Positions 1,875 to 25,383 of a stretch of DNA of 27,146 nt are shown piece after piece. Both the position numbers and the translations under genes were made by a program. Each line of letters starts with the position of its first letter. Position 1 is the first letter of the stretch. A model generated the notes under the pieces. That model was not told the DNA's origin, searched no databases, and saw only the letters and a list, made by a program, of their open reading frames with translations. The DNA is from a virus (taxonomy: Duplodnaviria; Heunggongvirae; Uroviricota; Caudoviricetes), in IMG/VR virus record IMGVR_UViG_3300045988_151853; one strand, given 5' to 3'.

Positions 1875-3604
1875 GCCGGAAATCTTACCCCAACGTAAAT
1901 GCTGCCAATCAGTATGCCCGTGATGTTGTGCGCGGAAAGATTGTGGCCTGCCAGTTTGTGATTCAGGCCTGCCAGCGCCATCTTGATGACCTGATGGCGG
2001 AAAAAAGTAAGTCGTTTCGTTACCGCTTCGACAAGGACCTGGCTGAACGGGCCGCCAAATTTATTCAGCTGTTGCCGCACACCAAGGGTGAGTGGGCATT
2101 CAAGAGGATGCCCATCACGCTGGAGCCGTGGCAGCTATTTGTGGTCTGCTGTGCGTTTGGCTGGGTCAATAAAGGGTCCCGGCTGCGCCGCTTCCGGGAG
2201 GTGTATACCGAAATCCCCCGTAAGAACGGCAAATCGGCAATCTCTGCCGGTGTTGCCCTGTATTGTTTTGCCTGTGATAACGAGTTTGGCGCGGAAGTGT
2301 ATTCCGGTGCCACGACAGAGAAACAGGCGTGGGAAGTCTTTCGCCCGGCGCGACTGATGTGTAAACGCACACCCATGCTGACGGAAGCGTTCGGGATTGA
2401 GGTTAACGCCTCAAACATGAATCGTCCGGAGGATGGCGCGCGGTTTGAACCGCTGATCGGTAACCCCGGTGATGGTTCATCACCCCACTGTGCGGTGGTG
2501 GATGAATATCACGAGCACGCCACCGATGCGCTTTACACCACGATGCTTACCGGGATGGGGGCGCGACGTCAGCCACTGATGTGGGCCATTACTACTGCCG
2601 GGTACAACATTGAGGGGCCGTGCTACGACAAGCGAAGGGAAGTTATCGAGATGCTCAACGGGTCGGTACCCAACGATGAACTGTTCGGGATCATCTATAC
2701 CGTTGACGAAGGCGATGACTGGACCGACCCGCAGGTGCTGGAAAAAGCTAACCCGAATATTGGCGTGTCGGTTTATCGCGAATTTTTGTTAAGTCAGCAG
2801 CAGCGTGCGAAAAATAACGCCCGTCTGGCAAACGTCTTTAAAACAAAACACCTCAATATCTGGGTGTCGGCGCGTTCGGCGTATTTCAACCTGGTGAGCT
2901 GGCAGAGCTGCGAGGATAAATCACTGACCCTTGAGCAGTTCGAGGGGCAGCCGTGCATTCTGGCCTTTGACCTGGCGCGTAAGCTGGATATGAACAGCAT
3001 GGCGCGACTTTATACCCGCGAGGTTGACGGTAAAACGCATTACTACAGTGTGGCCCCGCGTTTCTGGGTACCGTATGACACGGTGTACAGCGTCGAGAAA
3101 AATGAAGATCGCCGGACAGCCGAACGCTTTCAGAAATGGGTGGAAATGGGCGTCCTGACCGTTACCGATGGTGCAGAGGTGGATTATCGCTACATCCTCG
3201 AAGAGGCCAAAGCGGCGAACAAAATCAGCCCGGTCAGCGAGTCACCCATCGACCCCTTCGGGGCGACCGGGCTGTCACATGACCTTGCTGATGAAGACCT
3301 GAATCCCATCACCATCATTCAGAACTACACCAACATGTCCGACCCGATGAAAGAGCTGGAAGCGGCAATTGAATCGGGGCGCTTTCATCATGATGGCAAT
3401 CCCATCATGACCTGGTGTATCGGCAACGTGATCGGCAAAACCATTCCGGGTAACGATGATGTGGTGAAGCCCGTCAAAGAGCAGGCGGAAAACAAAATCG
3501 ATGGTGCAGTTGCGCTGATTATGGCGGTTGGCAGAGCCATGCTGTATGAGAAAGAAGACACGCTGTCCGACCACATTGAGTCCTACGGGATCCGCTCGCT
3601 TTAA
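1871..3604 (+). CDS. Terminase large subunit
   Basis: 577-aa ORF in the TerL position; size, position and ATPase/nuclease-type sequence are consistent with HK97-family large terminases. Confidence 0.9.
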
Positions 3605-3615
3605 CTGAGGTAATT

Positions 3616-3798
3616 ATGATCATGCTGATTCTCGCGCCTCTGGTGGGCGTGCTGGGTGCGCTTTTGCTGGCGTATGGTGCCTGGCTGATTTATCCCCCGG
3701 CGGGGTTTGTTGTTGCCGGGGCGTTGTGCCTGTTCTGGTCGTGGCTGGTGGCGCGATATCTCGACCGTACACAGTCGTCTGTCGGCGGAGGTAAATAG
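3616..3798 (+). CDS. Small membrane protein (hypothetical)
   Basis: 60-aa ORF with GAGG upstream and two predicted TM helices, between TerL and portal. Confidence 0.4.
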
Positions 3799-5039
3799 TG
3801 TTCTTTTCGGGATTATTTCAACGAAAAAGTGACGCACCGGTGACCACGCCAGCAGAGCTGGCGGATGCTATCGGTTTGTCCTACGACACCTATACCGGAA
3901 AGCAGATCAGCAGCCAGCGGGCCATGCGACTGACGGCGGTTTTTTCCTGTGTCAGGGTGCTGGCGGAGTCGGTCGGGATGTTGCCCTGCAACCTGTATCA
4001 CCTGAACGGCAGCCTGAAGCAGAGAGCCACTGGCGAACGTCTGCATAAGCTGATCTCCACGCATCCCAATGGCTATATGACGCCGCAGGAGTTCTGGGAG
4101 CTGGTGGTCACCTGTCTGTGCCTGCGGGGAAACTTTTACGCCTACAAAGTGAAAGCATTTGGCGAAGTGGCTGAACTGCTGCCCGTCGATCCCGGCTGTG
4201 TGGTACCGAAGCTTAACAGTAGCTGGGAGCCGGTCTATCAGGTCACATTCCCGGATGGCTCCACGGATGTACTGAGCCAGGAGGATATCTGGCATGTGCG
4301 CACGCTGACGCTGGACGGACTGGTGGGGCTGAATCCCATCGCCTATGCCCGCGAGGCAATATCGCTGGCGGCAGCGACCGAAGAGCACGGGGCCAGACTG
4401 TTCAGCAATGGCGCGGTGACGTCGGGTGTGTTGCGTACAGAGCAGACGCTGTCAGATCAGGCTTATGAGCGCCTGAAGAAAGATTTTGAGGAGCGTCACA
4501 CCGGGCTTGGCAATGCTCACCGCCCGATGATCCTTGAGATGGGGCTGGACTGGAAGTCGATGGCGCTGAACGCCGAGGACAGCCAGTTCCTGGAAACCCG
4601 CAAGTTTCAGCTTGAAGAAATCTGTCGTCTGTTCCGGGTGCCGTTGCACATGGTGCAGAACACCGATCGCGCCACCTTCAACAATATCGAAGAGCTGGGG
4701 CTGGGATTTATCAACTATTCACTGGTGCCGTATCTGACCCGCATCGAACAGCGGATCAACACCGGACTGGTACGAAAAAGTAAGCAGGGCGTTTATTACG
4801 CCAAATTTAACGCCGGGGCGTTACTGCGCGGGGATATGAAGTCCCGTTTTGAAGCCTACGCCACCGGGATCAACTGGGGAATTTACTCTCCCAATGACTG
4901 CCGCGACCTGGAAGATATGAATCCGCGTCCCGGTGGTGATGTCTATCTCACACCGATGAACATGACCACGAAACCCTCCGATGGCAGTAAAGCCGGTAAG
5001 CAGAAGGATAACGCCAATGCAGACGAAACAACGTCTTGA
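3798..5039 (+). CDS. Portal protein (HK97 family)
   Basis: 413-aa ORF with GTG start at 3798 preceded by GGAGG; position after terminase and sequence consistent with HK97-type portal. Confidence 0.9.
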   Translation: MFFSGLFQRKSDAPVTTPAELADAIGLSYDTYTGKQISSQRAMRLTAVFSCVRVLAESVGMLPCNLYHLNGSLKQRATGERLHKLISTHPNGYMTPQEFWELVVTCLCLRGNFYAYKVKAFGEVAELLPVDPGCVVPKLNSSWEPVYQVTFPDGSTDVLSQEDIWHVRTLTLDGLVGLNPIAYAREAISLAAATEEHGARLFSNGAVTSGVLRTEQTLSDQAYERLKKDFEERHTGLGNAHRPMILEMGLDWKSMALNAEDSQFLETRKFQLEEICRLFRVPLHMVQNTDRATFNNIEELGLGFINYSLVPYLTRIEQRINTGLVRKSKQGVYYAKFNAGALLRGDMKSRFEAYATGINWGIYSPNDCRDLEDMNPRPGGDVYLTPMNMTTKPSDGSKAGKQKDNANADETTS

Positions 5040-5667
5040 TGTACCGCTGAGTCTGAAATCTGTCAGTGACTCCGGTGAGTTTGAAGGGTATGGCTCCGTC
5101 TTTGGTGTAAAGGACAGCCACGATGATGTGGTGATGTCCGGGGCATTTGCTGCTTCCCTGCGGACGTGGAGTGACAGAAAAGCGTTACCTGCGCTGCTCT
5201 GGCAGCACCGCATGGATGAGCCCATCGGAGTTTACACCGAAATGAAGGAAGACGATGTCGGGCTTTACGTCAGGGGGCGGTTGCTCATTGATGATGATCC
5301 CCTGGCAAAACGCGCACATGCACACATGAAGGCCGGTTCGTTAACCGGCCTTTCTATTGGGTACGTCCTGAAAGACTGGGAATACGACCGGACGAAAGAA
5401 GCCTTTTTGCTGAAAGAAATCGACCTCTGGGAAGTCAGTCTGGTGACGTTTCCGTCTAACGACGAGGCGCGGATCAGCGACGTCAAGAACGCGCTGGCCC
5501 GCGGGGAAATCCCTGAACAGAAAAAAATCGAAAGAGTCCTGCGTGATGTCGGACTCTCCCGTACCCAGGCCAAAGCATTCATGGCCGGGGGCTATGGCGC
5601 ACTGTCCCTGCGCGACGCTGAGGATGTGGGCTCTGCACTGAATGCACTGAAAAATCTGAACTTCTAA
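5017..5667 (+). CDS. Prohead protease (HK97 family)
   Basis: Translation ...GYGSVFGVKDSHDDVVMSGAF... is typical of HK97-type prohead proteases. ATG at 5017 with AAGGA 8 nt upstream is preferred over the upstream in-frame ATG at 4981. Confidence 0.8.
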   Translation: MQTKQRLDVPLSLKSVSDSGEFEGYGSVFGVKDSHDDVVMSGAFAASLRTWSDRKALPALLWQHRMDEPIGVYTEMKEDDVGLYVRGRLLIDDDPLAKRAHAHMKAGSLTGLSIGYVLKDWEYDRTKEAFLLKEIDLWEVSLVTFPSNDEARISDVKNALARGEIPEQKKIERVLRDVGLSRTQAKAFMAGGYGALSLRDAEDVGSALNALKNLNF

Positions 5668-5681
5668 TCAGGAGAAATACG

Positions 5682-6887
5682 ATGGCGGTTGATATTAAAG
5701 ATGTGGAACAGGTCGCGCAGGAGCTGCAGCAGAAGTTTGACGACTTCAAGGCAAAGAACGACAAGCGCGTGGATGCGATTGAGCAGGAAAAAGGCAAACT
5801 TGCCGGGCAGGTGGAAACCCTGAACGGGAAACTCAGCGAGCTGGAAAATCTCAAAAGCGATCTTGAAAAAGAGCTGCTTGAGCTGAAACGTCCGGCAGGT
5901 GGTGTGCAAAATAAACTGGCCACTGAGCATAAAGAAGCGTTTGTGGGCTTTCTGCGTAAAGGCCGTGAAGACGGTCTGCGCGATCTGGAGCGCAAGGCAT
6001 TACAGGTGGGCACCGATGAAGACGGTGGCTATGCCGTGCCGGAAGCACTGGATCGCAACATTCTCACCCTGCTGAAAGATGAAGTGGTGATGCGCCAGGA
6101 AGCTACGGTGATCACTGTTGGCGGTTCCGACTACAAAAAACTGGTGAATCTGGGCGGTACGGCTTCCGGATGGGTGGGGGAAACGGATACGCGATCCCAG
6201 ACTGCCACCTCCAGACTGGAGCTGATTGAACCTCTCATGGGGGAAATTTACGGCAACCCGCAGGCTACCCAGAAAATGCTGGACGATGCCTTCTTCAACG
6301 TGGAGGCCTGGATCAACAGCGAGCTGGCAACCGAATTTGCCGAACAGGAAGAAATTGCCTTTACCTCAGGCGATGGCACCAAGAAGCCGAAAGGGTTCCT
6401 GGCGTATGAATCCACTGATGAAAACGACAAGGTCCGGGCGTTCGGCAAACTTCAGCATATTGTATCCGGCGAAGCGACCGCGGTGACCGCAGACGCCATT
6501 ATCAAACTGATTTACACGCTGCGTAAGGCACACCGCACTGGCGCGAAGTTCATGATGAACAACAACAGCCTGTTTGCCATCCGTCTGCTGAAAGACACCG
6601 AGGGTAACTATCTGTGGCGTCCGGGGCTGGAACTGGGGCAGCCGTCCTCTCTGGCGGGTTACGGTATCGCTGAAAACGAACAGATGCCGGATATCGCCGC
6701 TGATGCGAAAGCCATTGCATTTGGTAACTTCAAACGGGGTTACACCATCGTTGACCGTATCGGCACCCGCATTCTGCGTGACCCGTACACCAATAAACCG
6801 TTTGTCGGTTTTTATACCACCAAGCGCACCGGCGGGATGCTGGTCGATTCGCAGGCCATCAAACTGCTGAAGATTGCAGCGGCGTAA
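5682..6887 (+). CDS. Major capsid protein (HK97 fold)
   Basis: 401-aa ORF after the protease with a strong RBS (CAGGAGAAATACG-ATG); coiled N-terminal delta-like region followed by a capsid domain. Confidence 0.9.
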   Translation: MAVDIKDVEQVAQELQQKFDDFKAKNDKRVDAIEQEKGKLAGQVETLNGKLSELENLKSDLEKELLELKRPAGGVQNKLATEHKEAFVGFLRKGREDGLRDLERKALQVGTDEDGGYAVPEALDRNILTLLKDEVVMRQEATVITVGGSDYKKLVNLGGTASGWVGETDTRSQTATSRLELIEPLMGEIYGNPQATQKMLDDAFFNVEAWINSELATEFAEQEEIAFTSGDGTKKPKGFLAYESTDENDKVRAFGKLQHIVSGEATAVTADAIIKLIYTLRKAHRTGAKFMMNNNSLFAIRLLKDTEGNYLWRPGLELGQPSSLAGYGIAENEQMPDIAADAKAIAFGNFKRGYTIVDRIGTRILRDPYTNKPFVGFYTTKRTGGMLVDSQAIKLLKIAAA

Positions 6888-8917: not shown

Positions 8918-9088
8918 ATGTTTGTGAAACCTGTTAAAGGGCGGTCAGTGCCTGACCCTGCCCGCGGTGACCTTTTGCCCACCGAAGGGCGAAATGTTGA
9001 TGAGAACAACTACTGGCTGCGCCGTGAAGCAGCGGGTGATATCCGGCGCGTGAATAAAAAGGTGAACACCGATGACGATAAGCTTTAA
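8918..9088 (+). CDS. Small conserved protein upstream of tail sheath (DUF2635-like)
   Basis: 56-codon ORF not in the supplied track (below the size cut-off): MFVKPVKGRSVPDPARGDLLPTEGRNVDENNYWLRREAAGDIRRVNKKVNTDDDKL. It resembles the small protein found before the sheath gene in Mu-like tail clusters. Confidence 0.5.
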   Translation: MFVKPVKGRSVPDPARGDLLPTEGRNVDENNYWLRREAAGDIRRVNKKVNTDDDKL

Positions 9089-10568
9089 CACCATTCCGTC
9101 GAATACGCTGGTTCCGCTGTTTTATGCGGAAATGGATAACTCGGCGGCGAATACTGCACAGGACAGCGGAGCATCGCTGCTGATTGGTCATGCCAATAAC
9201 GGTGCAGAGATTGTTGCCAACAGTCTGGTGCTGATGCCGTCGGCAGACTATGCACGCCAGATTTGTGGTGCGGGAAGTCAGCTGGCGCGTATGGTCGAGG
9301 CTTATCGCCAGACCGACCCGTTTGGTGAGCTGTATGTGATTGCCGTTCCTGAATCCACGGGCGCGGCGGCAACGGTTACGCTGACGGTGACCGGGGCGGC
9401 AACCGAAACCGGCACGGTTAATGTTTATGTGGGACGTACCCGCGTACAGGCACCGGTGACCAACGGCGATAACGTTGCGACGATTGCCAGCAGTATCAAA
9501 GATGCCATCAATGCCGTTCCGGCCCTGCCGTTTACGGCTTCATCTTCGGCAGGCGTGGTCACACTGACCGCGCGTCATAAGGGGCTTTGCGGGAATGAAA
9601 TTCCTGTCAGCCTCAATTACTACGGGTTTGGTGGGGGCGAAGTGCTGCCAGCGGGCGTACAGATTGCCGTGGCGACGGGTACCGCCGGAACGGGCGCTCC
9701 GGTTCTCACCGGCGCGGTGGCTGCAATGGCGGATGAGCCGTTTGATTATATCGGCCTGCCGTTCAACGACACGGCCTCCGTTAACACGCTGGTGACCGAG
9801 ATGAACGATACCAGCGGTCGCTGGAGCTATGCGCGTCAGCTGTATGGTCATGTGTATACGGCAAAGATCGGCACGCTGTCAGAACTGGTGACCGCAGGTG
9901 ACCAGTTTAACCAGCAGCACATTACCCTGGCGGGATACGAAAAAGACACTCAGACGCCAGCCGACGAGCTGGCGGCAAGCCGTACCGCCCGCGCAGCGGT
10001 GTTTATTCGCAACGATCCGGCACGTCCCACGCAGACCGGTGAGCTGGTGGGTATGCTGCCTGCGCCGAAGGGGAAACGGTTCACGATGACCGAGCAACAG
10101 ACCCTGCTGTCTCATGGCGTGGCAACGGCGTATGTCGAAAGTGGGGTACTGCGCATTCAGCGTGATGTCACCACGTACAGGAAAAACGCTTACGGGGTTG
10201 CGGATAACAGCTACCTCGACAGTGAGACGCTGCATACCAGCGCGTATGTACTGCGCAAACTGAAATCCGTCATTACCAGTAAGTACGGGCGTCACAAGCT
10301 TGCCAGTGACGGTACCCGCTTTGGTCCCGGTCAGGCGATTGTCACCCCGGCGGTGATCAAAGGGGAACTGCTGGCAACCTACCGTCAGCTCGAGCGTGCG
10401 GGGATCGTGGAAAACTACGAACTGTTTAAGCAGTACCTGGTTGTGGAGCGTGATGCCAGCGATCCGAACCGCCTGAACACGCTGTTCCCGCCTGACTATG
10501 TTAACCAGTTGCGTGTCTTTGCCGTGGTTAACCAGTTCCGTCTTCAGTATTCAGAGGAGTCTGCATAA
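9072..10568 (+). CDS. Contractile tail sheath protein (Mu gpL-like)
   Basis: 498-aa ORF; size and sequence consistent with Mu-type sheath proteins; followed by the tube gene. Confidence 0.9.
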   Translation: MTISFNTIPSNTLVPLFYAEMDNSAANTAQDSGASLLIGHANNGAEIVANSLVLMPSADYARQICGAGSQLARMVEAYRQTDPFGELYVIAVPESTGAAATVTLTVTGAATETGTVNVYVGRTRVQAPVTNGDNVATIASSIKDAINAVPALPFTASSSAGVVTLTARHKGLCGNEIPVSLNYYGFGGGEVLPAGVQIAVATGTAGTGAPVLTGAVAAMADEPFDYIGLPFNDTASVNTLVTEMNDTSGRWSYARQLYGHVYTAKIGTLSELVTAGDQFNQQHITLAGYEKDTQTPADELAASRTARAAVFIRNDPARPTQTGELVGMLPAPKGKRFTMTEQQTLLSHGVATAYVESGVLRIQRDVTTYRKNAYGVADNSYLDSETLHTSAYVLRKLKSVITSKYGRHKLASDGTRFGPGQAIVTPAVIKGELLATYRQLERAGIVENYELFKQYLVVERDASDPNRLNTLFPPDYVNQLRVFAVVNQFRLQYSEESA

Positions 10569-10924
10569 TGGCCCGTATCGGGGGAACCTGTTATTTCAAA
10601 ATTGACGGTCAGCAGCTATCGCTGACCGGCGGCATTGAGGTGCCCATGAACAAAACGGTTAACGATGACATCATCGGCCTGGACGGTTCAGTGGACCGCA
10701 AGGAAACTCACCGTGCACCTTATGTCAAAGGGACCTTCAAGGTGCCGAAGAATTTTCCGGTGAGCAAAATCACCTCGTCTGATGAGATGACCATCACTGC
10801 CGAGCTGGCGAACGGTCAGGTCTATGTACTGTCGTCTGCCTGGCTGCACGGCGAAGCGAACCATAATGCCGAAGAAGGCACGGTCGATCTTGAGTTCCAC
10901 GGTGAAGAAGGGGATTACCAGTAA
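10568..10924 (+). CDS. Tail tube protein (Mu gpM-like)
   Basis: 118-aa ORF starting at the sheath stop (ATAATG overlap). Confidence 0.85.
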   Translation: MARIGGTCYFKIDGQQLSLTGGIEVPMNKTVNDDIIGLDGSVDRKETHRAPYVKGTFKVPKNFPVSKITSSDEMTITAELANGQVYVLSSAWLHGEANHNAEEGTVDLEFHGEEGDYQ

Positions 10925-11193
10925 TGAAAGAGCTTGAGTTAAAGAAACCGATTACCGCTCATGGCGAGACACTCTCCGTACTGGAGTTTGATGAGCCCAC
11001 CGGGAAAGATGTCCGCGAGCTGGGATATCCCTACCAGATGAATCAGGATGAGTCCGTCAGACTTCTGGCGCATGTGGTATCGAAATACATCGTGCGGCTG
11101 GCGAAAGTGCCGCAAAGCTCTGTCGACCAGATGTCTCCGGCAGACCTGAATGCAGCGGCGTGGCTTGTGGCCGGTTTTTTCCTCCAGGCCTGA
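10924..11193 (+). CDS. Tail assembly chaperone (short form)
   Basis: 89-aa ORF between the tube and tape measure genes; ends just after a slippery heptamer. Confidence 0.75.
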   Translation: MKELELKKPITAHGETLSVLEFDEPTGKDVRELGYPYQMNQDESVRLLAHVVSKYIVRLAKVPQSSVDQMSPADLNAAAWLVAGFFLQA

Positions 11194-11342: not shown

Positions 11343-13290
11343 ATTTGAGCTTAAGGCGTTGATCACCGGTGTCGACAGGCTTTCTCCCGCGCTGTCGAAA
11401 ATGCAAAAGAAAATCCGGGGATTTAAACGCCAGGCGGAAGAAGCGTCACAGGGTGGGCTGGCGCTTGGTGGCGGACTGGCAGCGGGTCTGACGCTTTCCC
11501 TGAAATCTTATGCCGATCAGGAAAACGCCGCCACCGGGCTGAAAGTCGCCATGATGGATGCGAACGGCGAGGTTGGAAAGAGCTTTCAGGACATCAATAA
11601 ACTGGCTATTGGCCTGGGTAACCAGCTACCCGGTACAACGGCTGATTTCCAGAACATGATGCAGATGCTGGTGCGTCAGGGGATCCCGGCAGAAAACATT
11701 CTTGGTGGTGTGGGTAAAGCGACAGCTTATCTTGCGGTACAACTGAAAAAAACACCGGAAGCGGCTGCTGAGTTTGCTGCAAAGATGCAGGATGCTACCG
11801 GAACGGCGTCAGAAGACATGATGGGGCTGTTCGACACTATCCAGAAGGCGTTTTATCTGGGCGTTGACGATACCAACATGTTGTCCTTCTTCACTAAAAC
11901 CAGTTCTGTTCTGAAGATGGTGAACAAGGACGGTCTTCAGGCTGCACAGAGCCTTGCCCCCATCAGCGTCATGATGGATCAGATGGGGATGAACGGGGAG
12001 TCGGCAGGTAATGCCCTGCGAAAAGTTATCCAGTCCGGATTAAGCGTTAAGAAAATCAGGGACGTCAATAAAGTCATGGCCCGCCAGAGACTCGGGGTAC
12101 AGCTCGATTTTACTGACGGCAAAGGAAGTTTTGGCGGTCTTGATAACATGTTCAGGCAACTGGCAAAGCTGCGAAAACTGACCGACGTTAAGCGAACAGG
12201 TGTACTTAAGGCAATATTTGGTGATGATGCCGAAACCCTTCAGGTGGTCAATGCACTAATCGATAAAGGAAAGGATGGCTACGATCAGATCCAGCAGAAG
12301 ATGAATAAACAGGCCAGCCTGAATAAACGTGTTCAGGCACAGCTTGGTACGCTGTCCAACCTGTGGGAGGCAATGACGGGGACCGCAACTAACGGCCTTG
12401 CGGCTATTGGCGGCGCATTTTCTGGTGACGCCAAAAATATCACGCAATGGCTGGGGGAGTTGGGGGAAAAATTCACGAAGTTTGCGGATGAAAATCCCCG
12501 GGTTATTCGCGGCGTCGTCGGGCTTGCTGCCGGTCTTGCGATTCTGAAACTGGGATTGATGGGCGTGGGCAGTGCCATCAGTATCGTCAGCAGGATCATG
12601 TCGATGACGCCGATTGGCATGATTGCGACGGCGATTGCCTTGGCTGCGGGATTAATTATCACTAACTGGGATGTTGTTGGACCTTATTTCAAGAAGCTCT
12701 GGGAAACCATTGGTCCTTATTTTGAGGCTGGCTGGGAACTTCTGAAGAAGGTTTTTGCCTGGTCGCCGCTGGGGATGGTAATCAATAACTGGGGACCGGT
12801 TGTTAAGTGGTTTCAGGATATGTGGGACAAGCTGAAGCCAATTATTGAGTGGTTTACCGACAGTTCCGGTGACACGGTCGATGCCATTAACTCGGCGCAG
12901 TGGGGCGCGGGTGCTTATGATGCTTATGGGACGGGAATACCGCCACGGGGATACACTCCTTATCCGGCGCAGTCAAACAACGCCTCCGGTGACACGGTCG
13001 ATGCCATTAACTCTGCGCAGTGGGGCGCGGGTGCTTATGATGCTTATGGGACGGGAATACCGGCGCGGGGATACACACCTTATCCGGCGGTAGATCCGGC
13101 TCAGTCAAACAACGCCTCCGATGCTACAGGCCCGAATCCCTTCATGATTAACAAAGCTTCTGCGCCAAAAGTTGACGGTGAGATCAAGGTCTCTTTTGTG
13201 AATTCGCCTCCGGGTATGCGGGTTATGGAAACGCGATCCAGCGGTTTTGATATAAATCACGATGTTGGCTATACGCATATTGGCAGATGA
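11335..13290 (+). CDS. Tail tape measure protein
   Basis: 651-aa ORF after the chaperone pair, with a coiled/helical N-terminal half, a hydrophobic segment, and a C-terminal tandem repeat. Confidence 0.9.
   Translation: MAEFELKALITGVDRLSPALSKMQKKIRGFKRQAEEASQGGLALGGGLAAGLTLSLKSYADQENAATGLKVAMMDANGEVGKSFQDINKLAIGLGNQLPGTTADFQNMMQMLVRQGIPAENILGGVGKATAYLAVQLKKTPEAAAEFAAKMQDATGTASEDMMGLFDTIQKAFYLGVDDTNMLSFFTKTSSVLKMVNKDGLQAAQSLAPISVMMDQMGMNGESAGNALRKVIQSGLSVKKIRDVNKVMARQRLGVQLDFTDGKGSFGGLDNMFRQLAKLRKLTDVKRTGVLKAIFGDDAETLQVVNALIDKGKDGYDQIQQKMNKQASLNKRVQAQLGTLSNLWEAMTGTATNGLAAIGGAFSGDAKNITQWLGELGEKFTKFADENPRVIRGVVGLAAGLAILKLGLMGVGSAISIVSRIMSMTPIGMIATAIALAAGLIITNWDVVGPYFKKLWETIGPYFEAGWELLKKVFAWSPLGMVINNWGPVVKWFQDMWDKLKPIIEWFTDSSGDTVDAINSAQWGAGAYDAYGTGIPPRGYTPYPAQSNNASGDTVDAINSAQWGAGAYDAYGTGIPARGYTPYPAVDPAQSNNASDATGPNPFMINKASAPKVDGEIKVSFVNSPPGMRVMETRSSGFDINHDVGYTHIGR
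12865..13113 (+). repeat. In-frame tandem duplication (about 120 bp, 2 copies) inside tape measure gene
   Basis: TCCGGTGACACGGTCGATGCCATTAAC... recurs at 12865 and 12985 with 4 mismatches over 120 bp. The second copy carries a short insertion (GGTAGATCCGGCT for GCG) before CAGTCAAACAACGCC. Both encode SGDTVDAINSAQWGAGAYDAYGTGIP(P/A)RGYTPYPA. Confidence 0.9.
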
Positions 13291-13306
13291 CGGAACCAGA
13301 TATAAT
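13280..13306 (+). promoter_or_regulatory. Putative sigma70 promoter for the moron gene
   Basis: TTGGCA (13280-13285), 15-nt spacer, perfect TATAAT (13301-13306), located right after the tape measure stop. The spacer is short, so confidence is low. Confidence 0.35.
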
Positions 13307-13342
13307 TTGTCTTTAAGTTTGTTATCAACTGAAGGGAAATCT

Positions 13343-13720
13343 ATGGGTCTGTTACATGCCATTATAGGTAATGCCGGTGAAATTAATGCATCAGATGCAC
13401 AACAGGAATTAGGGGCTGTTTTAGGTGAGGGAGAAAATGTCGAACTTGCCTATAAACTCATTCGTGACCAAATTATTCTGACTAACAGAAGGTTAATTTT
13501 TATTGATAAGCAGGGTGTCACAGGGAAAAAAGTAGAGTATCGTTCGATTCCTTATAAATCTGTGACAAACTTTTCTATTGAAACCGCCGGGCATCTTGAT
13601 CTTGATGCTGAAATGAAGATATGGATTTCTGGTATTGCAGAACCGATAAAAAAACAGTTCAGTAAAGGAGCAAACATTTATAAATTGCAGGCTCATCTGG
13701 CTCAAAAAATAGCAGGGTAA
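13343..13720 (+). CDS. Bacterial PH-domain-like protein (bPH/DUF1696-like), moron
   Basis: 125-aa product MGLLHAIIGNAGEINASDAQ...LGEGENVELAYKLIRDQIILTNRRLIFIDKQG...VEYRSIPYKSVTNFSIETAG... with AAGGGA RBS; visibly AT-rich relative to the flanking tail genes; followed by a strong terminator. Confidence 0.55.
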   Translation: MGLLHAIIGNAGEINASDAQQELGAVLGEGENVELAYKLIRDQIILTNRRLIFIDKQGVTGKKVEYRSIPYKSVTNFSIETAGHLDLDAEMKIWISGIAEPIKKQFSKGANIYKLQAHLAQKIAG

Positions 13721-13746
13721 ACCTTACATTAATTTATGTCTTTCAT

Positions 13747-13768
13747 GCCCACTTCGGTGGGCTTTTTT
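13747..13768 (+). terminator. Rho-independent terminator (GCCCAC-TTCG-GTGGGC + T6)
   Basis: Perfect 6-bp GC-rich stem with a UUCG tetraloop (13747-13762) followed by TTTTTT (13763-13768), 27 nt after the moron stop. Confidence 0.8.
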
Positions 13769-13783
13769 ATATCCGGAGTTTAT

Positions 13784-15112
13784 ATGACGTGGAAAGACAG
13801 GCTTCAGGACGCGTCATTTCGCGGTGTGCCGTTTAAGGTTGAAGAAGAAAGTGCGGGAACAGGTCGCCGTGTGGAAACACACGAATATCCGAACCGCGAC
13901 AAACCCTATACCGAAGATCTGGGAAAAGTCACTTTCCGCCCGTCCATCACGGCTTATGTGGTGGGCGATGACTGCTTTGACCAGCGCGATCGCCTGATTG
14001 ACGCGCTGAATAAACCCGGTCCCGGCACGCTTGTCCACCCGACTTACGGTGAGCTGAAAGTCTGTGTTGACGGAGAGGTTCGGGTCAGCACATCGAAAAG
14101 TGAAGGGCGTATTGTCCGCTTTGACCTGAAGTTTGTCGAAGCGGGAGAACTCTCTTACCCCACATCAGGTGCGGCGACGGCGCAGACGCTGATGTCATCC
14201 TGTTCTGCACTGGATGACTGCATCAGTGACAGCTTCAGCGGTTTCAGTATCGATGGTGTGGCGGATTTCGTGCAGAACGACGTTATCGGTAATGCCAGCA
14301 TAATGCTGGGGTATGTTTCTGATGCGATGAAAGTGGTGGATTCTGCCGTATCGGATGCCGCCAGGCTGTTGCAGGGGGATATCTCGGTACTTCTGCCGCC
14401 GCCATCGTCAGGCAAAAATTTCGTTGAGCAGGTGCAGAAAATGTGGCGTACCGGGAAACGCCTTTATGGTAACGCCAGCGACCTGGTCACCATGATCAAA
14501 ACGCTTTCCGGTGTCAGCCTCGGCAGCGATCTGCAACCGCGCGGCGTCTGGAAAACGGACAGTAAAACCACCGCCACGGCGACGCAGCAGCGTAACGTGG
14601 TTGCCAGCACCCTTCGTGCGACCGCAATCAGCGAAGCGGTGTATGCCGTCACCCGATTGCCTGCGCCAACAACTTCCGCGGTGATGCAGAATGCCGCAGT
14701 GGGGCAGTCAACAACTTCCGCGCAGAGCACCGGCTGGCCTTCCGTCACGCATCCGGCACTGAACAATGCACCGGCGGTGAAAAACACGGTTGACCTGCCA
14801 ACGTGGGAAGAACTGACTGACATTCGCGACACACTGAATACGGCAATTGATAAGGAGTTGTCCCGTACAACCAGTGATGCGCTGTTTCTGGCGCTGCGCC
14901 GGGTGAAAGCAGATCTGAATGCGGATATCAACACGCGCCTTGAACAGTCTGCACGGATCATTCAGCGCACACCGGATGAGGTTTTACCCGCGCTGGTGCT
15001 GGCGGCGACCTGGTTTGATAACGCGGCGCGTGACGCGGACATTATCCGGCGTAATGCCATTACGCATCCCGGCTTTGTGCCGGTGATCCCTCTGAAGGTG
15101 CCAGTGCAATGA
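13784..15112 (+). CDS. Mu gpN-like DNA circularisation protein (tail component)
   Basis: Starts MTWKDRLQDASFRGVPFKVEEES..., characteristic of the DNA-circulation N-terminal domain. ATG 13784 (GGAG upstream) is chosen because the upstream in-frame ATG at 13736 would read through the terminator hairpin. Confidence 0.8.
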   Translation: MTWKDRLQDASFRGVPFKVEEESAGTGRRVETHEYPNRDKPYTEDLGKVTFRPSITAYVVGDDCFDQRDRLIDALNKPGPGTLVHPTYGELKVCVDGEVRVSTSKSEGRIVRFDLKFVEAGELSYPTSGAATAQTLMSSCSALDDCISDSFSGFSIDGVADFVQNDVIGNASIMLGYVSDAMKVVDSAVSDAARLLQGDISVLLPPPSSGKNFVEQVQKMWRTGKRLYGNASDLVTMIKTLSGVSLGSDLQPRGVWKTDSKTTATATQQRNVVASTLRATAISEAVYAVTRLPAPTTSAVMQNAAVGQSTTSAQSTGWPSVTHPALNNAPAVKNTVDLPTWEELTDIRDTLNTAIDKELSRTTSDALFLALRRVKADLNADINTRLEQSARIIQRTPDEVLPALVLAATWFDNAARDADIIRRNAITHPGFVPVIPLKVPVQ

Positions 15113-16188
15113 ACGACAATGTCACGCTACGGGTAAATGGCCGGGAGTGGAATGGCTGGACATCGGTGCGCATCGGTGCCGGTATTGAACGGCTGGCGCG
15201 GGATTTCAGTGTGGAGATCACTCGCCAGTGGCCGGGAGATGAGGGTATCACCACGCTTCAGCCGCGCATTAAAAACGGTTCAAAAGTGGAAGTGCTGATT
15301 GGTGATGAGCTGGTGATCACCGGCTGGGTGGAGGCGACTCCCGTTCGTTACGATGCCCGTTCGGTCAGCACCGGTATTGCCGGACGTAGTCTGACGGCTG
15401 ACCTGATTGACTGTGCAGCCGAACCGACACAGTTTAACGGACGCTCGCTGGTGCAGATTGCGCAGGCGCTTGCTGCGCCTTTCGGCATTGAGGTGGTGAA
15501 CAGCGGTGCGCCGTCGGGTGTTATTCCTGATGTTCAGCCTGATCACGGTGAAACGGTGATTGAGGTAATCAACAAAATACTCGGTCAGCAGCAGGCACTG
15601 GCTTACGACGACCCGCACGGCAGGCTGGTGATTGGCGGTATTGGCTCAACGCGGGCACATACTGCGCTGGTACTCGGGGAAAACATCCTTTCCTGCGATA
15701 CGGAGAAGAGTATCCGGGAGCGATTTTCTGTTTACCAGGTGGCGGGGCAGCGTGCCGGGAACGACGATGATTTCGGTGAGGCCACCACCACCGCGCTGCG
15801 GGCCCGCACAGAGGACGCATTTATTGCCCGTCACCGTCCGATGTATATCAGGCAGACAGGGCAGGCCACGGGGGCAGGCTGTATTGCGCGTGCTGACTTT
15901 GAAGCCCGACAACGGGCGGCGCGGACGGATGAAACCACCTATTTGGTGCAGGGCTGGCGACAGGGTAACGGTACGCTGTGGCAGCCCAACCAGCGGGTGA
16001 TTGTCTTCGATCCGGTCTGTGGTTTCGACAATACCGAACTGCTTGTCTCGGAAGTCACGTTCACTCAGGACCAGAACGGCACCATGACGGAAATCCGTGT
16101 CGGCCCACCTGATGCTTATCTGCCTGAACCCGAAGCCCCCGGCGAGCGGAAAAAGAAAAAAGCCAGAGTACAGGAGGACCCGTTCTGA
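15109..16188 (+). CDS. Mu gpP-like tail protein (P2 gpD-like)
   Basis: 359-aa ORF translationally coupled to the N-like gene; typical Mu P-family position. Confidence 0.8.
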   Translation: MNDNVTLRVNGREWNGWTSVRIGAGIERLARDFSVEITRQWPGDEGITTLQPRIKNGSKVEVLIGDELVITGWVEATPVRYDARSVSTGIAGRSLTADLIDCAAEPTQFNGRSLVQIAQALAAPFGIEVVNSGAPSGVIPDVQPDHGETVIEVINKILGQQQALAYDDPHGRLVIGGIGSTRAHTALVLGENILSCDTEKSIRERFSVYQVAGQRAGNDDDFGEATTTALRARTEDAFIARHRPMYIRQTGQATGAGCIARADFEARQRAARTDETTYLVQGWRQGNGTLWQPNQRVIVFDPVCGFDNTELLVSEVTFTQDQNGTMTEIRVGPPDAYLPEPEAPGERKKKKARVQEDPF

Positions 16189-18784: not shown

Positions 18785-19543
18785 ATGCATCGTATAGACA
18801 CGAAAACCGCGCAGAAGGATAAGTTTGGCGCGGGTAAAAACGGTTTTACCCGTGGTAACCCCCAGACTGGCACGCCTGCCACCGATCTGGATGATGACTA
18901 CTTTGACATGTTGCAGGAGGAGCTTTGCAGCGTTGTAGAGGCATCCGGTGCCAGTCTCGAGAAGGCGCGGCACGACCAGCTGCTTACCGCGCTTCGTGCG
19001 CTGCTGTTAAGCCGCAAGAATCCGTTTGGTGATATCAAATCGGACGGCACAGTACCAACGGCTCTCGAAAACCTTGGTTTGGGAGAAGGTTCGGCATTAC
19101 CCGTTGGCGTGCCTGTTCCGTGGCCTTCCACCACTCCGCCAACAGGCTGGCTGAAATGCAACGGTGCGTTTTTTTCTGCTGAAGAATACCCGGAACTGGC
19201 AAAGGCTTATCCGACAAATAAATTGCCTGATTTACGAGGTGAATTTATTCGTGGCTGGGATGACGGGCGTGATGTTGATAGTGGACGCGCTTTATTAAGC
19301 GAACAACTTGACGCTATGCAAAATGTTACGGGTTCTCTGATTGATAACACTATGGGGTCAGCTTCCTCAGCATCTGGAGTTTTTAATGTTGGTTCTAGTT
19401 CTGGGGTTAAATATGCCGCTCCATCAACTGGTAATGCATTTAGTTACTATGGTGTGACACTTGATTTATCCAGGAGTGCAAGAACATCAGCAGAAACAAG
19501 GCCACGTAACATTGCATTTAACTACATTGTAAGGGCAGCATGA
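18785..19543 (+). CDS. stf: Tail fibre protein: constant N-terminal part (to about 19075) fused to the variable C-terminal cassette expressed in the current orientation
   Basis: 252-aa ORF; an invertase crossover site lies inside it at 19062-19087 (codons ...LENLGLGE...); the part downstream of the site is low-GC and Ser/Gly-rich. Confidence 0.8.
19062..19087. repeat. Invertase crossover site, left (hix/gix/pix-like): CTCTCGAAAACC-TT-GGTTTGGGAGAA
   Basis: 12-bp half-sites flanking a TT core, closely resembling the Hin hixL pattern TTCTTGAAAACC-AA-GGTTTTTGATAA as I recall it; in inverted orientation to the site at 20887-20912. Confidence 0.75.
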
Positions 19544-20151
19544 TGACCACAAAAAAAATCACTTTGGATGAAAACGGATTTGCCACAGAGGCTGGCTTCA
19601 TTACCGTTTACAACTACAACGGAGAAACGCGGGAATATATTTCCACATCAACTGAATATCTTACGGTTGGCGTCGGTATCCCGGCATGTTCTTGTTTAGA
19701 TGCACCAGTTACACATAAGGCTGGTTATGCAATCTGCCGTTCTGCAGATTTTAACTCATGGGAATATGTGCCAGACCATCGCGGTGAAATCGTCTTTAGC
19801 ACCGAAACAGGAGAATCAAAAGAAATCACAGCTCCGGGTGATTACCCTGATAATACAACCACTATCGCCCCGTTAACACCATACGATAAATGGGATGGTG
19901 AGAAATGGGTGACGGATACCGATGCACAGCATAGCGCCGCAGTAGATGCAGCAGAAGCACAACGCCAGTCGCTGATTGATACTGCAATGGCTTCCATCAG
20001 TCTGATTCAACTGAAATTACGGGCCGGACGGAATCTGACGCAGGCAGAAACCAGCCGACTTAACACGGTGCTGGATTACATTGACGCGGTGACGGCAACA
20101 GATACCAGCACCGCGCCGGATGTCATCTGGCCTGAACTGCCGGAGGAGTAG
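19540..20151 (+). CDS. tfa: Tail fibre assembly protein (expressed orientation)
   Basis: 203-aa ORF overlapping the stf stop (ATGATGA); conserved Tfa C-terminus ...[16 protein letters not shown]. Confidence 0.85.
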
Positions 20152-20566
20152 GCCATTCAATATCTGGTGCACTGGAAGTATCGACCAGCTCCAGTGCGTC
20201 CAGATAATCCAGCCACAAATTATATTGCGCCAGTTCCTCACCTTTCAGACGACCAATAGCCGCTTTACCAACCCATTGTCTACTGTTCATATAATCGTTG
20301 GCCTGATTAATCAATTGCTGCTTTTTAGTTTCGGCTGATGCAATTTGTTCTTCACGTGTTGGTGGATGAATATCTGCCCATGCAGGCAGTCCATCTTCTC
20401 CAACACATCTGTATTTTCCTTCTGGTGGTGTGTCATAGAAATATTCCCTGAAAATTACTTCGTCTATATCAACACCTTTTTCTTCAGGCCATTCACCTTT
20501 TTCAACATAAAGAGACTGAAGTTCGTAAGGATATGCCAGGTTGTTTACGTACAGATATTTCATCAT
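20123..20566 (-). CDS. Alternative tail fibre assembly protein (silent orientation)
   Basis: 147-aa minus-strand ORF with Tfa-like C-terminus ...[19 protein letters not shown]; its 3' end overlaps the plus-strand tfa 3' end; its start overlaps the stop of the alternative fibre cassette. Confidence 0.8.
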   Translation of the reverse strand: MMKYLYVNNLAYPYELQSLYVEKGEWPEEKGVDIDEVIFREYFYDTPPEGKYRCVGEDGLPAWADIHPPTREEQIASAETKKQQLINQANDYMNSRQWVGKAAIGRLKGEELAQYNLWLDYLDALELVDTSSAPDIEWPTPPAVQAR

Positions 20567-20900
20567 TACCAGCCCTTAGCGAAAAACGCACCACCTTCAA
20601 GACCATAATTGCAGTGAGCTATGAAGCCGGTAGTGCTCCAGTTGGTCGCCCCCCACATATTCCCGCCCCCGAAACCACCATCGCACACAATTACAATGCC
20701 CGGTGTCTGTGTAAATGGAATCGGGAATGAAACATTGGCGGATACAGGCCCGTGTTCACCAGGAAAACTAATTCGTCCCCACTGTTCAATTGAACCATCT
20801 GGCATTTTTCGCCAGCCTGAACCTGATGCATATGATGACATATCAGGTATCTGATTTTCCCCTGTTCCCACATTCCGTTTTGCCGCTTCTCCCAAACCAA
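20566..20900 (-). CDS. Alternative tail-fibre C-terminal cassette (Sv'), promoterless and lacking its N-terminus in this orientation
   Basis: The minus-strand frame reads ...[18 protein letters not shown]...FAKGW*; the GLGE codons lie in the right crossover site in the same frame as GLGE of stf, so inversion would fuse the constant stf N-terminus to this cassette. Confidence 0.7.
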
Positions 20901-20912
20901 CGTTTATGAAAA
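20887..20912. repeat. Invertase crossover site, right: TTCTCCCAAACC-AA-CGTTTATGAAAA
   Basis: Reverse complement TTTTCATAAACG-TT-GGTTTGGGAGAA matches the left site (half-site GGTTTGGGAGAA identical; core TT); lies 55 bp upstream of the invertase start. Confidence 0.75.
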
Positions 20913-20966
20913 TGCAGAAATAGCGCGCAAATGGCATCGTTCCTGTTTTTGTCAGGAGGAGCTATC

Positions 20967-21523
20967 ATGCTTATTGGCTATGTTCGCGTATCAACAAATG
21001 ACCAGAACACCGATCTACAACGTAATGCGTTGAACTGTGCAGGATGTGAGCTGATTTTTGAAGACAAGATAAGCGGTACAAAGTCCGACAGACCAGGACT
21101 GAAAAAGCTGCTCAGGACATTATCGGCAGGTGACACGCTGGTGGTCTGGAAACTGGACCGACTGGGGCGCAGTATGCGGCATCTTGTCGTGCTGGTGGAA
21201 GAGTTGCGCGAACGTGGCGTTAATTTTCGCAGCCTGACGGATGCTATTGATACCAGCACACCAATGGGGCGCTTTTTCTTTCATGTGATGGGTGCCCTGG
21301 CTGAAATGGAGCGAGAGTTTATTGTCGAACGTACTAGGGCGGCTTTGCCGCAGCACGACAAGAAGGGAGGAACGGTGGGCGAAAGCCAAAGCTGACAGTA
21401 GAACAATGGGGGCAGGCTGGCAGGTTGATTGAATCGGGAATATATCAGCAGCAAGTCGCACTGATTTATGATCTGGGTATTTCAACGGTGTATAAAAAAT
21501 TCCCTGTAGCAAGTAAACCATAG
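20967..21523 (+). pseudogene. pin: Pin/Gin/Hin-family serine DNA invertase, interrupted by an apparent -1 frameshift near 21338-21342
   Basis: Frame 3 from ATG 20967 gives MLIGYVRVSTNDQNTDLQRNAL...FIVERTRA (resolvase/invertase catalytic domain with the catalytic Ser in YVRVST), then runs into unrelated residues and stops at 21395. Frame 2 (21338-21523) encodes the expected continuation GFAAARQEGRNGGRKPKLTVEQWGQAGRLIESG...ISTVYKKFP (HTH domain). AGGAGG RBS upstream of 20967. Confidence 0.75.
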
Positions 21524-22855: not shown

Positions 22856-22907
22856 TACTGTGTTTGTATACAGTATTATTTTTAACTGTATGGATAAACA
22901 GTGTCAA
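22856..22907 (-). promoter_or_regulatory. SOS-regulated promoter: -35 TTGACA, 17-nt spacer, -10 TAAAAA, with two LexA boxes (22858-22873 and 22886-22901)
   Basis: Minus strand reads TTGACA-CTGTttatccatACAGt-TAAAAA...taCTGTatacaaacACAGta...GGAGGGActtttATG. Both boxes fit CTGT-N8-ACAG; the downstream one matches the 20-bp consensus ends TACTGT...ACAGTA. Confidence 0.75.
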
Positions 22908-24001
22908 GAGGTCTTATTTCTGCTCCTTTGGAGCTCTTCAAAACGATTATGTAAAGATTTCGGATACAGTTCGGTATATACCTGCCATAGCACGTTTAAT
23001 GAACGATGCCCTGTAACCTGGGCGACTTCCTCAATACTAAAACCAGCCTCAAATAAGCGACTTGCCCCTTCTCTACGCAAATCATGGTATCGCAGATCCT
23101 TAATACCTAATTTGCTTCTTACTCTCTGAAATCCCGCAGTAACAGAAGTGCTGTTATATGGAAAAATGAATTCCGATTTTTGGGGCTGTCGTTGGACGAT
23201 ATCCCAGGCTTCCCCAAGCAAGGCTACTTTCATGTGGTTGCCTTCCTTTTTGCGTGGATCTTTCCTGTCTCTTACGAGTATAGATTTTTGTTCCTGGTCG
23301 AGATCTTCCCATCGTAACCGGCATACTTCTCCGATTCGCATACAGGACCATACAGAAAATTTGAGGATATCAACGAACGGAATTTTTGAGCATTTATGAG
23401 TAGATCGTTGTTGAAGGCCTGCAATGAGCATGTCCAGTTCATCAGATGCTGGTCTACGATTACGACGGTTTGATTTACCAATCAAACCAAGTTTAAGTAG
23501 ATATGGGCGAGCGCTTTTCGCCGGGTTTGATGTGTAATTAATTCCGTATACAGGTTTGGCCGCATCCAGAACACTGCCAAGATAACTAACATCGTGGCTG
23601 ACTGTTGCTGGACCTGCACCAGCGTTGTTTCTTAGCCTGCAATGTTCAATTACGTCATTTTCTGTCAGTTCAGATAGTTTGATCGCGGAGATGTCACTAT
23701 CCATAAGCAGTTCCAGCACATATCTTTTAGTACGGCCTGCTTTACCTCCGGCATTTGGGTCATTTAAATATTTGTGTAGTAAGTCACGGACTGTAAGTCC
23801 GTCAACTGCATTTGATGATGGAATGCCATATAGATCTAATTCCATCACTTTCTGTGTGCCCCATGTTTTGGCATGAGCATGTTTAGGGAATGTTTTGCTT
23901 TCCCTGTAAGTGATAACACCTTTTTCTTTGATAATCACATTACAGCGATAGCGTGGTGTGCCATCGGATTTTAGTCGTTTCTCTATGTTATAGTACGCCA
24001 T
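22904..24001 (-). CDS. int: Tyrosine-type site-specific integrase
   Basis: 365-aa minus-strand ORF with an integrase catalytic region (...SCMRIGEVCRLRWEDLD..., ...LRYHDLRREGASRL..., ...VTGHRSLNVLWQVYTELY...) carrying R, H-x-x-R and Tyr motifs; GAGG RBS. Confidence 0.9.
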   Translation of the reverse strand: MAYYNIEKRLKSDGTPRYRCNVIIKEKGVITYRESKTFPKHAHAKTWGTQKVMELDLYGIPSSNAVDGLTVRDLLHKYLNDPNAGGKAGRTKRYVLELLMDSDISAIKLSELTENDVIEHCRLRNNAGAGPATVSHDVSYLGSVLDAAKPVYGINYTSNPAKSARPYLLKLGLIGKSNRRNRRPASDELDMLIAGLQQRSTHKCSKIPFVDILKFSVWSCMRIGEVCRLRWEDLDQEQKSILVRDRKDPRKKEGNHMKVALLGEAWDIVQRQPQKSEFIFPYNSTSVTAGFQRVRSKLGIKDLRYHDLRREGASRLFEAGFSIEEVAQVTGHRSLNVLWQVYTELYPKSLHNRFEELQRSRNKTS

Positions 24002-24916: not shown

Positions 24917-24921
24917 TACTT

Positions 24922-25383
24922 ATGCTGGGTGATTGTTTCCCTCCTGATTTTAAGGCTAATTTTAGTCGTGAAAGAGGTATATCACCCGGTGATGTATTGT
25001 ATCTTCATTGTGATTTTACGACCCCACCTAAAGTAAAATATATGGTGGTTGTTTGCTGTGAACCTCTTTTAGTTCTTCTAATAAATTCAGATATAAATGA
25101 ATTTATTAAGAGAAACAATGATCTTATGGCTTGTCAGGTCGAAATTAATAGAGAGGACCATGATTTTCTTAAATGGGACTCATTTGTTAATTGCATTGAG
25201 GCTCATGCTGCTTTCGATCTTGAAATTATTAAAGAGAAAATAGCCATCCAATATGGCGACGTGCTAAAAGGTCGCATTACAGATCATTGTATGAGACAAG
25301 TTCGATGTGCAGTTGAGATATCTAAAATCATGGTTAAACGGCATAAAAAACTGATACTCGCTGCTCTTCAACATTATGAATAA
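24922..25383 (+). CDS. Hypothetical protein overlapping or abutting the Panacea-domain gene (candidate toxin/effector partner)
   Basis: 153-aa ORF from ATG 24922 (the track lists TTG 24913, overlapping the upstream stop by 4 nt); AT-rich; I recognise no family; followed by a bidirectional terminator. Confidence 0.45.
   Translation: MLGDCFPPDFKANFSRERGISPGDVLYLHCDFTTPPKVKYMVVVCCEPLLVLLINSDINEFIKRNNDLMACQVEINREDHDFLKWDSFVNCIEAHAAFDLEIIKEKIAIQYGDVLKGRITDHCMRQVRCAVEISKIMVKRHKKLILAALQHYE

Follow-up and report, generated by a model that had tools for sequence, protein, structure and literature searches.

A close described counterpart of the locus analyzed here is gp15 of phage HK97, a host-derived moron that lies beside the tape measure gene and excludes superinfection (PMC3594210). 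Our locus is found in a stretch of 27,146 nucleotides (nt) of DNA from a virus of the class Caudoviricetes (IMG/VR record IMGVR_UViG_3300045988_151853), which in its full length we refer to as the window. It comprises a single gene for the bacterial PH-domain protein PHb1, located in an SfV-like prophage between the tape measure gene and the gene for a baseplate hub protein similar to Mu gp43/N (hereafter gpN). Like gp15, it is one small gene of deviant GC content next to the tape measure gene in a tail operon, belongs to a bacterial gene family and appears dispensable for the virion. Promoter and terminator signals accompany gp15, and likewise candidate signals are present around the PH gene. 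The two differ in that gp15, a member of the YebO family, resides in the inner membrane and has a demonstrated exclusion phenotype, whereas the PH protein is soluble and unrelated in sequence; moreover gp15 is encoded in a siphovirus, upstream of the tape measure gene, and the PH gene follows the tape measure gene of its own phage.

Fixed intergenic sites in the structural or late region at which alternative single genes are horizontally exchanged have been described as moron positions of P2 (PMC3573123). The same logic of fixed position and alternative cargo applies to the P2/P4 defence hot spots, as cited in PMC10884400, and Tab of JBD26 occupies an accessory-gene hot spot of similar kind. 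PHb genes in lysogeny positions of phages were already noted by Xu et al. (PMC2817789). Since tail-operon morons and phage-borne PHb genes are both known, the arrangement is not surprising in itself. However, the family PF08000 has had structures since 2010 and no function, and a strongly conserved copy in a dispensable slot of an inducible E. coli prophage makes a tractable system. An initial annotation, made from the letters of the window, had proposed a self-contained moron with its own promoter and terminator inserted between the two tail genes. Taking all observations together, we consider it probable that the gene is a single-gene PHb1 moron expressed in the lysogen, which resides in a conserved cargo slot, has its own promoter, uses a terminator resident at the site and is exchanged through its flanks.

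The window represents an SfV-like prophage with head genes followed by a Mu-type contractile tail module (Table 1). The seam between the tape measure gene (stop codon TGA at 13288-13290) and gpN measures 493 bases and is the sole large gap in a tail operon whose genes otherwise overlap or abut. Around it, a segment of 1.5 kb (12800-14300) recurs with 100% identity in the chromosome of E. coli O19:H7 strain 730V1. We surveyed 5,426 complete E. coli genomes, 1094 of which carry the flanking tail module; the position of the slot was checked for all 28 PH copies and, for the other cargoes, in representative loci, one per type. The junction is empty in 532 genomes. Where it is occupied, it most often encodes a 176-aa protein (178 genomes), followed by a 170-aa protein as in phage SKA5 (85), a 148-aa OB-fold protein on the minus strand (72), a 225-aa lipoprotein (55), the PH protein (28) and a 145-aa protein with two transmembrane segments on the minus strand (6); roughly 140 genomes have unclassified slot content. 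All 28 PH copies lie in the tape measure/gpN slot with at least 99% identity, and four of them are split by IS1. A similar picture was obtained for a sample of 80 IMG/VR contigs, with 42 empty slots, 17 each with the two commonest cargoes, two with the PH gene and two truncated. One E. coli PH copy is located on a 70-kb plasmid that bears the tail module (pMTY18781-3, NZ_AP023208.1, annotated as circular); a phage-plasmid, an episomal or a misassigned prophage are all possible for this record.

Comparison with SfV-like relatives, which the initial annotation had suggested as a check, bore out the accessory nature of the gene: both flanks have counterparts of about 96% identity in SfV, SfII and SfI, which do not contain the PH block. 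The opposite reading would be a structural or assembly component of the tail whose translation is coupled within the operon, an arrangement that would speak against a moron. Its sole support is the position between tail genes, and it is effectively refuted. In most relatives the gene is missing or replaced: SfV, SfII and SfI are viable and lack it, as do about 97% of the related E. coli prophages. It is broken by IS1 in the four genomes mentioned, is set off by gaps of 52 nt and 63 nt on either side and has a ribosome-binding site of its own; outside the phage copies, its nearest relatives are found among chromosomal genes. Judged from these comparisons, PHb1 is dispensable for building the virion.

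The five alternative cargoes all have a low GC content (0.31-0.42), and each of them features an N-terminal hydrophobic segment or a lipobox, with hydropathy scores of at least 1.66. The OB-fold gene and the 145-aa gene run antisense to the late operon, so the slot holds independent transcription units. The OB-fold protein belongs to phrog_8545, "superinfection exclusion Sie-like" (E 1.5e-49), and has the Pfam domain tRNA_anti-like in common with lactococcal Sie2009 of phage Tuc2009. Because a member of the Sie2009 family sits there, in 72 E. coli genomes and in Scandinavium, the slot appears to be used for exclusion-type cargo. The PH protein occupies the same slot and is not homologous to this family; it is soluble and encoded on the plus strand, whereas the Sie2009-family cargo is membrane-anchored and encoded on the opposite strand.

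Beyond E. coli we surveyed one genome per species of the GTDB. The slot carries cargo in at least nine other genera, for example the Sie-like OB gene in Scandinavium, the 145-aa gene in Buttiauxella izardii and Citrobacter, the SKA5-type gene in Atlantibacter, the PH gene in Edwardsiella hoshinae, lipoproteins in Erwinia and Serratia, and a 66-aa membrane protein in a second Buttiauxella. By this comparative evidence the tape measure/gpN seam is a conserved cargo hot spot, whose genes are predominantly of an envelope or superinfection-exclusion type, and most of its cargoes have no assigned function. With about half of the SfV-like E. coli tail modules and the relatives in at least nine genera carrying cargo, it provides a list of candidate exclusion or conversion genes. 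No account that treats this seam of SfV-like phages, with the tape measure gene on one side and the Mu gp43-like gene on the other, as a hot spot for cargo turned up in the literature that could be searched, although a prior description is possible. Two Pantoea slots of 552 nt (L195) and 290 nt (L196) are low in GC and contain no open reading frame (ORF) of at least 60 aa while keeping the hairpin and T-run described below; a gene for an RNA or for a very small protein might be present in them. Copies of gpN that are 98-100% identical to that of the E. coli phage were also found in a "Bacillota" metagenome-assembled contig (L184) and in a 282-bp Microvirga contig (L200), most likely due to assembly contamination.

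We then considered the signals within the block. The AT-rich segment that had been pointed out in the tail operon is evident in the GC profile, as 13291-13746 forms the minimum of the structural module with a GC content of 0.364 (module mean 0.548, standard deviation 0.044). At third codon positions the PH ORF has a GC content of 0.29 compared to 0.57-0.64 in the neighboring genes. The composition of the block is foreign. Also the TATAAT element described just past the tape measure stop is present, 11 nt beyond the stop codon, and is preceded by a -35-like hexamer. A consensus scanner with spacers of 16-18 nt missed this promoter-like site because its spacer is 15 nt. TATAAT occurs only six times in the window on both strands, and 19 of 100 shuffles yielded a TTGG-N17-20-TATAAT arrangement somewhere in the window. 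Between the E. coli and Edwardsiella lineages a block TATTGGCAGATrAC..AAC..GATATAA upstream of the PH gene is kept, and so are the ribosome-binding site, the hairpin and the T6 run, whereas the leader and the 26-nt 3' spacer have diverged. From its position and conservation we infer a putative promoter, which is plausible and not statistically proven.

Downstream of the PH gene the GCCCAC-UUCG-GUGGGC hairpin with six T residues is found as it had been described. Its assignment to the cassette, on which the notion of a self-contained unit rested, did not hold. The empty SfV and SfII junctions contain TCCCAC-TCCG-GTGGGA with T6 directly ahead of the ribosome-binding site of gpN, and the depositors of SfII annotated the hairpin at this junction as a putative terminator. 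A hairpin with T-run and CCGGAG is also found in relatives from Yersinia, Pantoea, Erwinia, Atlantibacter and Buttiauxella, whose gpN proteins are 51-72% identical. Since hairpin and T6 are thus present in cargo-free junctions and across genera, the element belongs to the operon seam and not to the cassette. It is absent ahead of gpN in loci with minus-strand cargo. We aligned ten distinct versions of the hairpin, in which 96.7% of the cells pair and three of the six pairs show compensatory double changes. The covariation score was reached by none of 500 shuffles and controls slid along the alignment remained near zero; given the small set of related sequences this is supportive, not conclusive.

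In one empty slot (IMGVR_UViG_2778261657_000001) we noticed a hybrid hairpin, TCCCAC-TTCG-GTGGGC, with one mismatched pair. Its left arm is of the empty type, its right arm and flank are of the PH type, and the contig looks like a recombinant with the crossover inside the hairpin. Overall the alignments indicate that the hairpin is a conserved resident element as well as a recombination joint, and such a conserved hairpin with U-run within a late operon marks a natural operon seam. Two other interpretations of the hairpin were discarded. A match to the Rfam family isrB over the terminator is sub-threshold (24 bits, gathering score 35) and was read as chance. An integron-like hairpin was rejected in view of the 6-bp stem, the U-run that follows, the lack of an integrase nearby and the absence of the hairpin before gpN in the loci with minus-strand cargo.

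When judged by the moron definition of Juhala and Hendrix as summarized in PMC3594210, the cassette shows the presence/absence polymorphism, the deviant composition and the dispensability of a moron; its promoter is a candidate one, and its terminator is that of the seam. With these restrictions we regard the gene as a genuine moron. The view that the gene was simply inserted likewise needs modification. It is indeed accessory, but saturation of synonymous sites points to a long residence in this slot, and movement seems to occur by a homologous block of about 1 kb. The PH copies of E. coli and Edwardsiella phages share 79% DNA identity; the proportion of synonymous differences (pS) amounts to 0.71-0.75, non-synonymous divergence to 6-7% and dN/dS to 0.016-0.03. 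These values indicate that the gene is kept by strong purifying selection inside phages. They also bear on the idea that the block is functionless DNA hitch-hiking in a permissive intergenic site. The low frequency (28 of 1094 module-bearing genomes) and the existence of IS1-disrupted copies would agree with it, yet a dN/dS of about 0.02-0.03 at saturated synonymous sites together with the retention of all family-invariant residues makes it very improbable.

The prophage of E. hoshinae is a mosaic. It follows the window closely (93-100% identity) over most of the tape measure gene and once more from position 13744 on, while its region of about 12760-13743 is of the type found in phage EPP-1 (84-96% identity). 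Homologous recombination has thus exchanged a block of about 1 kb that comprises the PH gene and the preceding 3' end of the tape measure gene. In this exchange between phages the last ~170 tape measure codons (from about 12760) move together with the cargo, and the right crossover lies at the hairpin. We found no target-site duplication and no meaningful terminal repeats flanking the cassette. A 10-nt inverted repeat that brackets it (13296-13305 and 13767-13776) is not kept in EPP-1 and was read as chance. The 3' end of the PH gene (GCAGGGTAA) and the trailing ATTAAT, both within 13712-13735, are similar to the end of the tape measure gene at the empty SfV and SfII sites (GGCAGGTAA...ATTAAT); this short AT-rich match may represent microhomology at an old insertion or deletion joint. 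With 651 aa the tape measure protein of the window is longer than that of SfV and SfII (611 aa) owing to an insertion of about 40 aa towards its C-terminal side (13000-13118), which is also present in prophages with the 176-aa cargo. A strict association of cargo type with the tape measure allele, following a logic similar to Tab and anti-Tab, was rejected, because the PH cassette is found with both 651-aa and 611-aa tape measure genes.

The predicted 125-aa ORF and its PH/GRAM-like signature were both recovered in the analysis. The protein, which starts with MGLLHAIIGN, matches Pfam PF08000 with 163.2 bits (E 3e-48; cutoff 27.7) over residues 3-122 (profile positions 2-121 of 122), and the motifs LTNRRLIFI, VEYRSIPY and FSIETAG lie on family-invariant columns. 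It retains all 18 invariant columns of a diverse alignment of the family and conserved core residues such as R41, D42, R50, P70, Y71, E80 and W94. A longer ORF of 152 aa starting at 13262 was dismissed because of its overlap with the tape measure gene and because every homologue begins at the MG... position. PHROG matches were limited to phrog_7115 and phrog_2700, both function-unassigned. The Shewanella PHb1 proteins of known structure (PDB 3DCX and 3HSA) are about 58% identical (E ~4e-39) and match over the full length with the same single-domain "group 1" architecture of ~125 aa. According to Xu et al. 2010 (PMC2817789) they form pentameric dome-shaped rings and are similar to GRAM/PH and GLUE domains, and this resemblance justifies the earlier PH/GRAM-like label. 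By homology the phage protein should form such a pentameric ring as well. The genes differ in context: those of Shewanella are chromosomal, the copy described here belongs to the tail operon of a prophage and has its own promoter-like site.

All homologues with at least 87% identity come from E. coli and Edwardsiella phages and occupy this tail slot. For the chromosomal homologues, which are found in Photobacterium, Edaphovirga, Clostridia and Bacilli, the identity to the phage protein is 60-72%, and those inspected sit in unrelated, non-phage neighborhoods that are not defence islands. Because of these conserved homologues in non-phage contexts, the cargo looks like a gene captured from a highly conserved cellular family. 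Such a gene could also serve the host, with lysogenic conversion supplying a conserved PHb1 activity, e.g. tolerance of envelope or membrane stress. Stress induction and association with the membrane fraction have been reported for members of the family (Xu et al. 2010, PMC2817789). In addition, sigma-W-controlled YozO of Bacillus has been suggested to act in stress tolerance, conservation towards the cellular homologues is very high across phyla under strong purifying selection, and there is neither a match to defence databases nor a location of the chromosomal homologues in defence islands. On the other hand, the neighbors of PHb1 in phages are mostly exclusion or defence cargo, and to our knowledge no phenotype is known for any PHb1 protein. 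We regard this role in host physiology as possible, with some doubt.

PHb1 genes of other phages are found mainly on the lysogeny side of the genome. ORF124 of Lactococcus phage ul36, ORF77 of Microbacterium phage Min1 and a PHb1 of a Vibrio 186-like phage belong to the same family PF08000 and are carried as prophage cargo. They are 33-41% identical to the PH protein, do not begin with the MGLxxxxxGNAGE motif that the cellular-type proteins have at the N-terminus and are located between repressor and integrase instead of in the tail operon. In ul36 the gene adjoins the integrase gene, in the Vibrio phage (10N.286.45.B12_PE001) it lies between cI and integrase. We analyzed 45 further distinct viral loci: a tyrosine integrase is encoded within two ORFs downstream of PHb1 in 12 and an S24/HTH repressor immediately upstream in 8 of them. 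Other neighbors are Abi_2, an AbiEii-type ATPase, an Ltp exclusion lipoprotein, GtrII, Schlafen/AlbA_2, and endolysins at prophage ends. Positions on the repressor or integrase side are typical for genes expressed in the lysogen. In the Vibrio phage PHb1 lies directly upstream of a gene for a 612-aa SIR2-domain protein with PADLOC matches to Ago-associated SIR2 and PDC-S65 (E 3e-64); the two genes lie within 3450-5737. This pairing was regarded as coincidence, as SIR2 is absent from the 25 most frequent neighbor families listed for the 45 other viral loci.

These positions have to be weighed against an accessory role in the lytic cycle, e.g. in counter-defence or in membrane or lysis timing, for which late read-through would suffice and the promoter-like site would be irrelevant. 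The gene shares the orientation of the late genes, antitermination by Q, which is encoded by SfII and SfIV (PMC3772137, PMC3851460), would carry the polymerase through the block, the promoter falls short of the optimum in E. coli and even more so in the Edwardsiella copies, and EPP-1, isolated as a plaque-forming phage, keeps the gene. In unrelated temperate phages, however, the family is found in lysogeny modules co-oriented with repressor and integrase and not among late genes, and two of the alternative cargoes run antisense to the late operon, which argues for use of the slot by independently transcribed genes. We therefore consider a purely lytic role unlikely and prefer expression as a moron in the lysogen. 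There, the Q-dependent late operon would be silent and the PH gene would rely on its own sigma-70-like promoter and ribosome-binding site for transcription and translation. At the resident hairpin and U-run this transcript would end, which would shield the baseplate genes from the moron promoter. During lytic growth, by analogy to the behavior of lambda Q, the modified polymerase would be expected to read through the whole unit. Homologous recombination within the flanks would swap the cassette between phages, and its right crossover would fall at the hairpin.

As to what the protein does in the lysogen, we tentatively suggest a putative role at the cytoplasmic face of the inner membrane, in superinfection exclusion or another defence that would protect the host cell. 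This suggestion is based on the other cargoes of the slot, the company of PHb1 in lysogeny modules, the precedent of HK97 gp15 and the reported membrane-fraction association of family members. An envelope-stress role is about equally likely. Among the lactococcal Sie proteins, a review (PMC6127208) names sie309 and sie312 as those with demonstrated resistance. We considered and rejected homology of the PH protein to a proven Sie protein, as Sie2009 consists of a transmembrane segment and an OB domain (tRNA_anti-like) and sie309 has a SHOCT domain only; of these proteins sie285 (bIL285 orf2) alone carries a bPH_3 domain, related to that of PHb1. No homology of the PH protein to a characterized exclusion family was found among its PHROG matches.

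Several observations weigh against expression from an own promoter and a protective function. With 15 nt the promoter spacer is shorter than the optimum, and the Edwardsiella copies read TATAAC at the -10 position and hence lack the key final T. As the PH gene is co-oriented with the late operon, late read-through alone could suffice for its expression. The protein has no transmembrane segment, signal peptide or lipobox (maximal 19-residue hydropathy 0.58), unlike all other slot cargoes, and neither Sie2009 nor sie309, which are proven Sie proteins of lactococcal phages, belongs to the PH-domain proteins. No match was obtained when the PH protein was scanned against NCBIfam and against PADLOC (PADLOC-DB v2, E <= 1). 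Finally, an identity of 60-66% to proteins of Clostridia, Bacilli and Vibrionaceae is unusual for exclusion or defence proteins, and such strong conservation fits the retention of some cellular function.

A more far-reaching version, which we consider doubtful, is that the seam is a dedicated hot spot for exclusion cassettes of Mu-type tails in Enterobacterales and PHb1 a new, cytoplasmic and ring-shaped class of anti-phage proteins. If this were true, PHb1 might cap the entry route at the inner membrane or bind an incoming tail or tape-measure component, and it would provide the first function for the widespread PF08000 family.

Table 1. Positions of the PHb1 locus, its signals and further features in the window
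Feature	Position	Strand	Remarks
Sheath gene	9072-10568		Tail module
Tube gene	10568-10924		Tail module
Chaperone gene	10924-11193		Tail module
Tape measure gene, 651 aa	11335-13290	+	Left flank of slot; Pfam PhageMin_Tail (E 1e-26), PHROG tape measure families
-35-like TTGGCA (5/6)	13280-13285	+	Within the last tape measure codons; sole -35/-10 combination in 13240-13345; kept in Edwardsiella copies
-10-like TATAAT (6/6)	13301-13306	+	15 nt after -35; predicted transcript start near 13313
Shine-Dalgarno-like AAGGGA	13332-13337	+	5 nt ahead of ATG; read from sequence; GAAGGG in all five diverged copies
PHb1 gene, 125 aa	13343-13720	+	Soluble bacterial PH-domain protein; RefSeq WP_001514801.1; Pfam bPH_1 (PF08000)
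3' spacer, 26 nt	13721-13746	+	Poorly conserved
Terminator-like hairpin GCCCAC-TTCG-GTGGGC and T6	13747-13768	+	Hairpin 13747-13762, T6 13763-13768; -11.8 kcal/mol
GGAG, Shine-Dalgarno of gpN-like gene	13775-13778	+	CGGAG invariant in hairpin alignment; CCGGAG in most loci of non-E. coli genera
Mu gp43/N-like "DNA circulation"/baseplate hub gene (gpN)	13784-15112	+	Right flank of slot; Pfam DNA_circ_N (E 3e-34), phrog_184 baseplate hub
gpP-like hub gene	15109-16188		Tail module
Tail fibre gene (Collar domain) and assembly chaperone	within 18785-21395	+	
Alternative chaperone	20123-20566	-	
Alternative fibre C-terminus	20566-20937	-	
Serine recombinase	20931-21395		Resolvase (E 7e-49)
DUF4145 protein gene, 231 aa	21550-22245	-	phrog_1305 "DNA binding protein"; GC ~0.38
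Integrase gene	22904-24001		
SocA/Panacea antitoxin-domain protein gene	24335-24916		E 7e-20
ORF, 156 aa	24913-25383		Start overlapped by the preceding gene

Outside the tail module we noticed three further features. The region 18785-21395 resembles the invertible G segment of Mu and represents a host-range switch with alternative fibre and chaperone genes. Between its invertase and the integrase gene lies the DUF4145 gene, which is probably another accessory cargo; the gtr genes of serotype-converting SfV relatives are located at this position. Beside the integrase gene, the region 24335-25383 has the lowest GC content of the whole window (0.33) and looks like a Panacea-type toxin-antitoxin pair.

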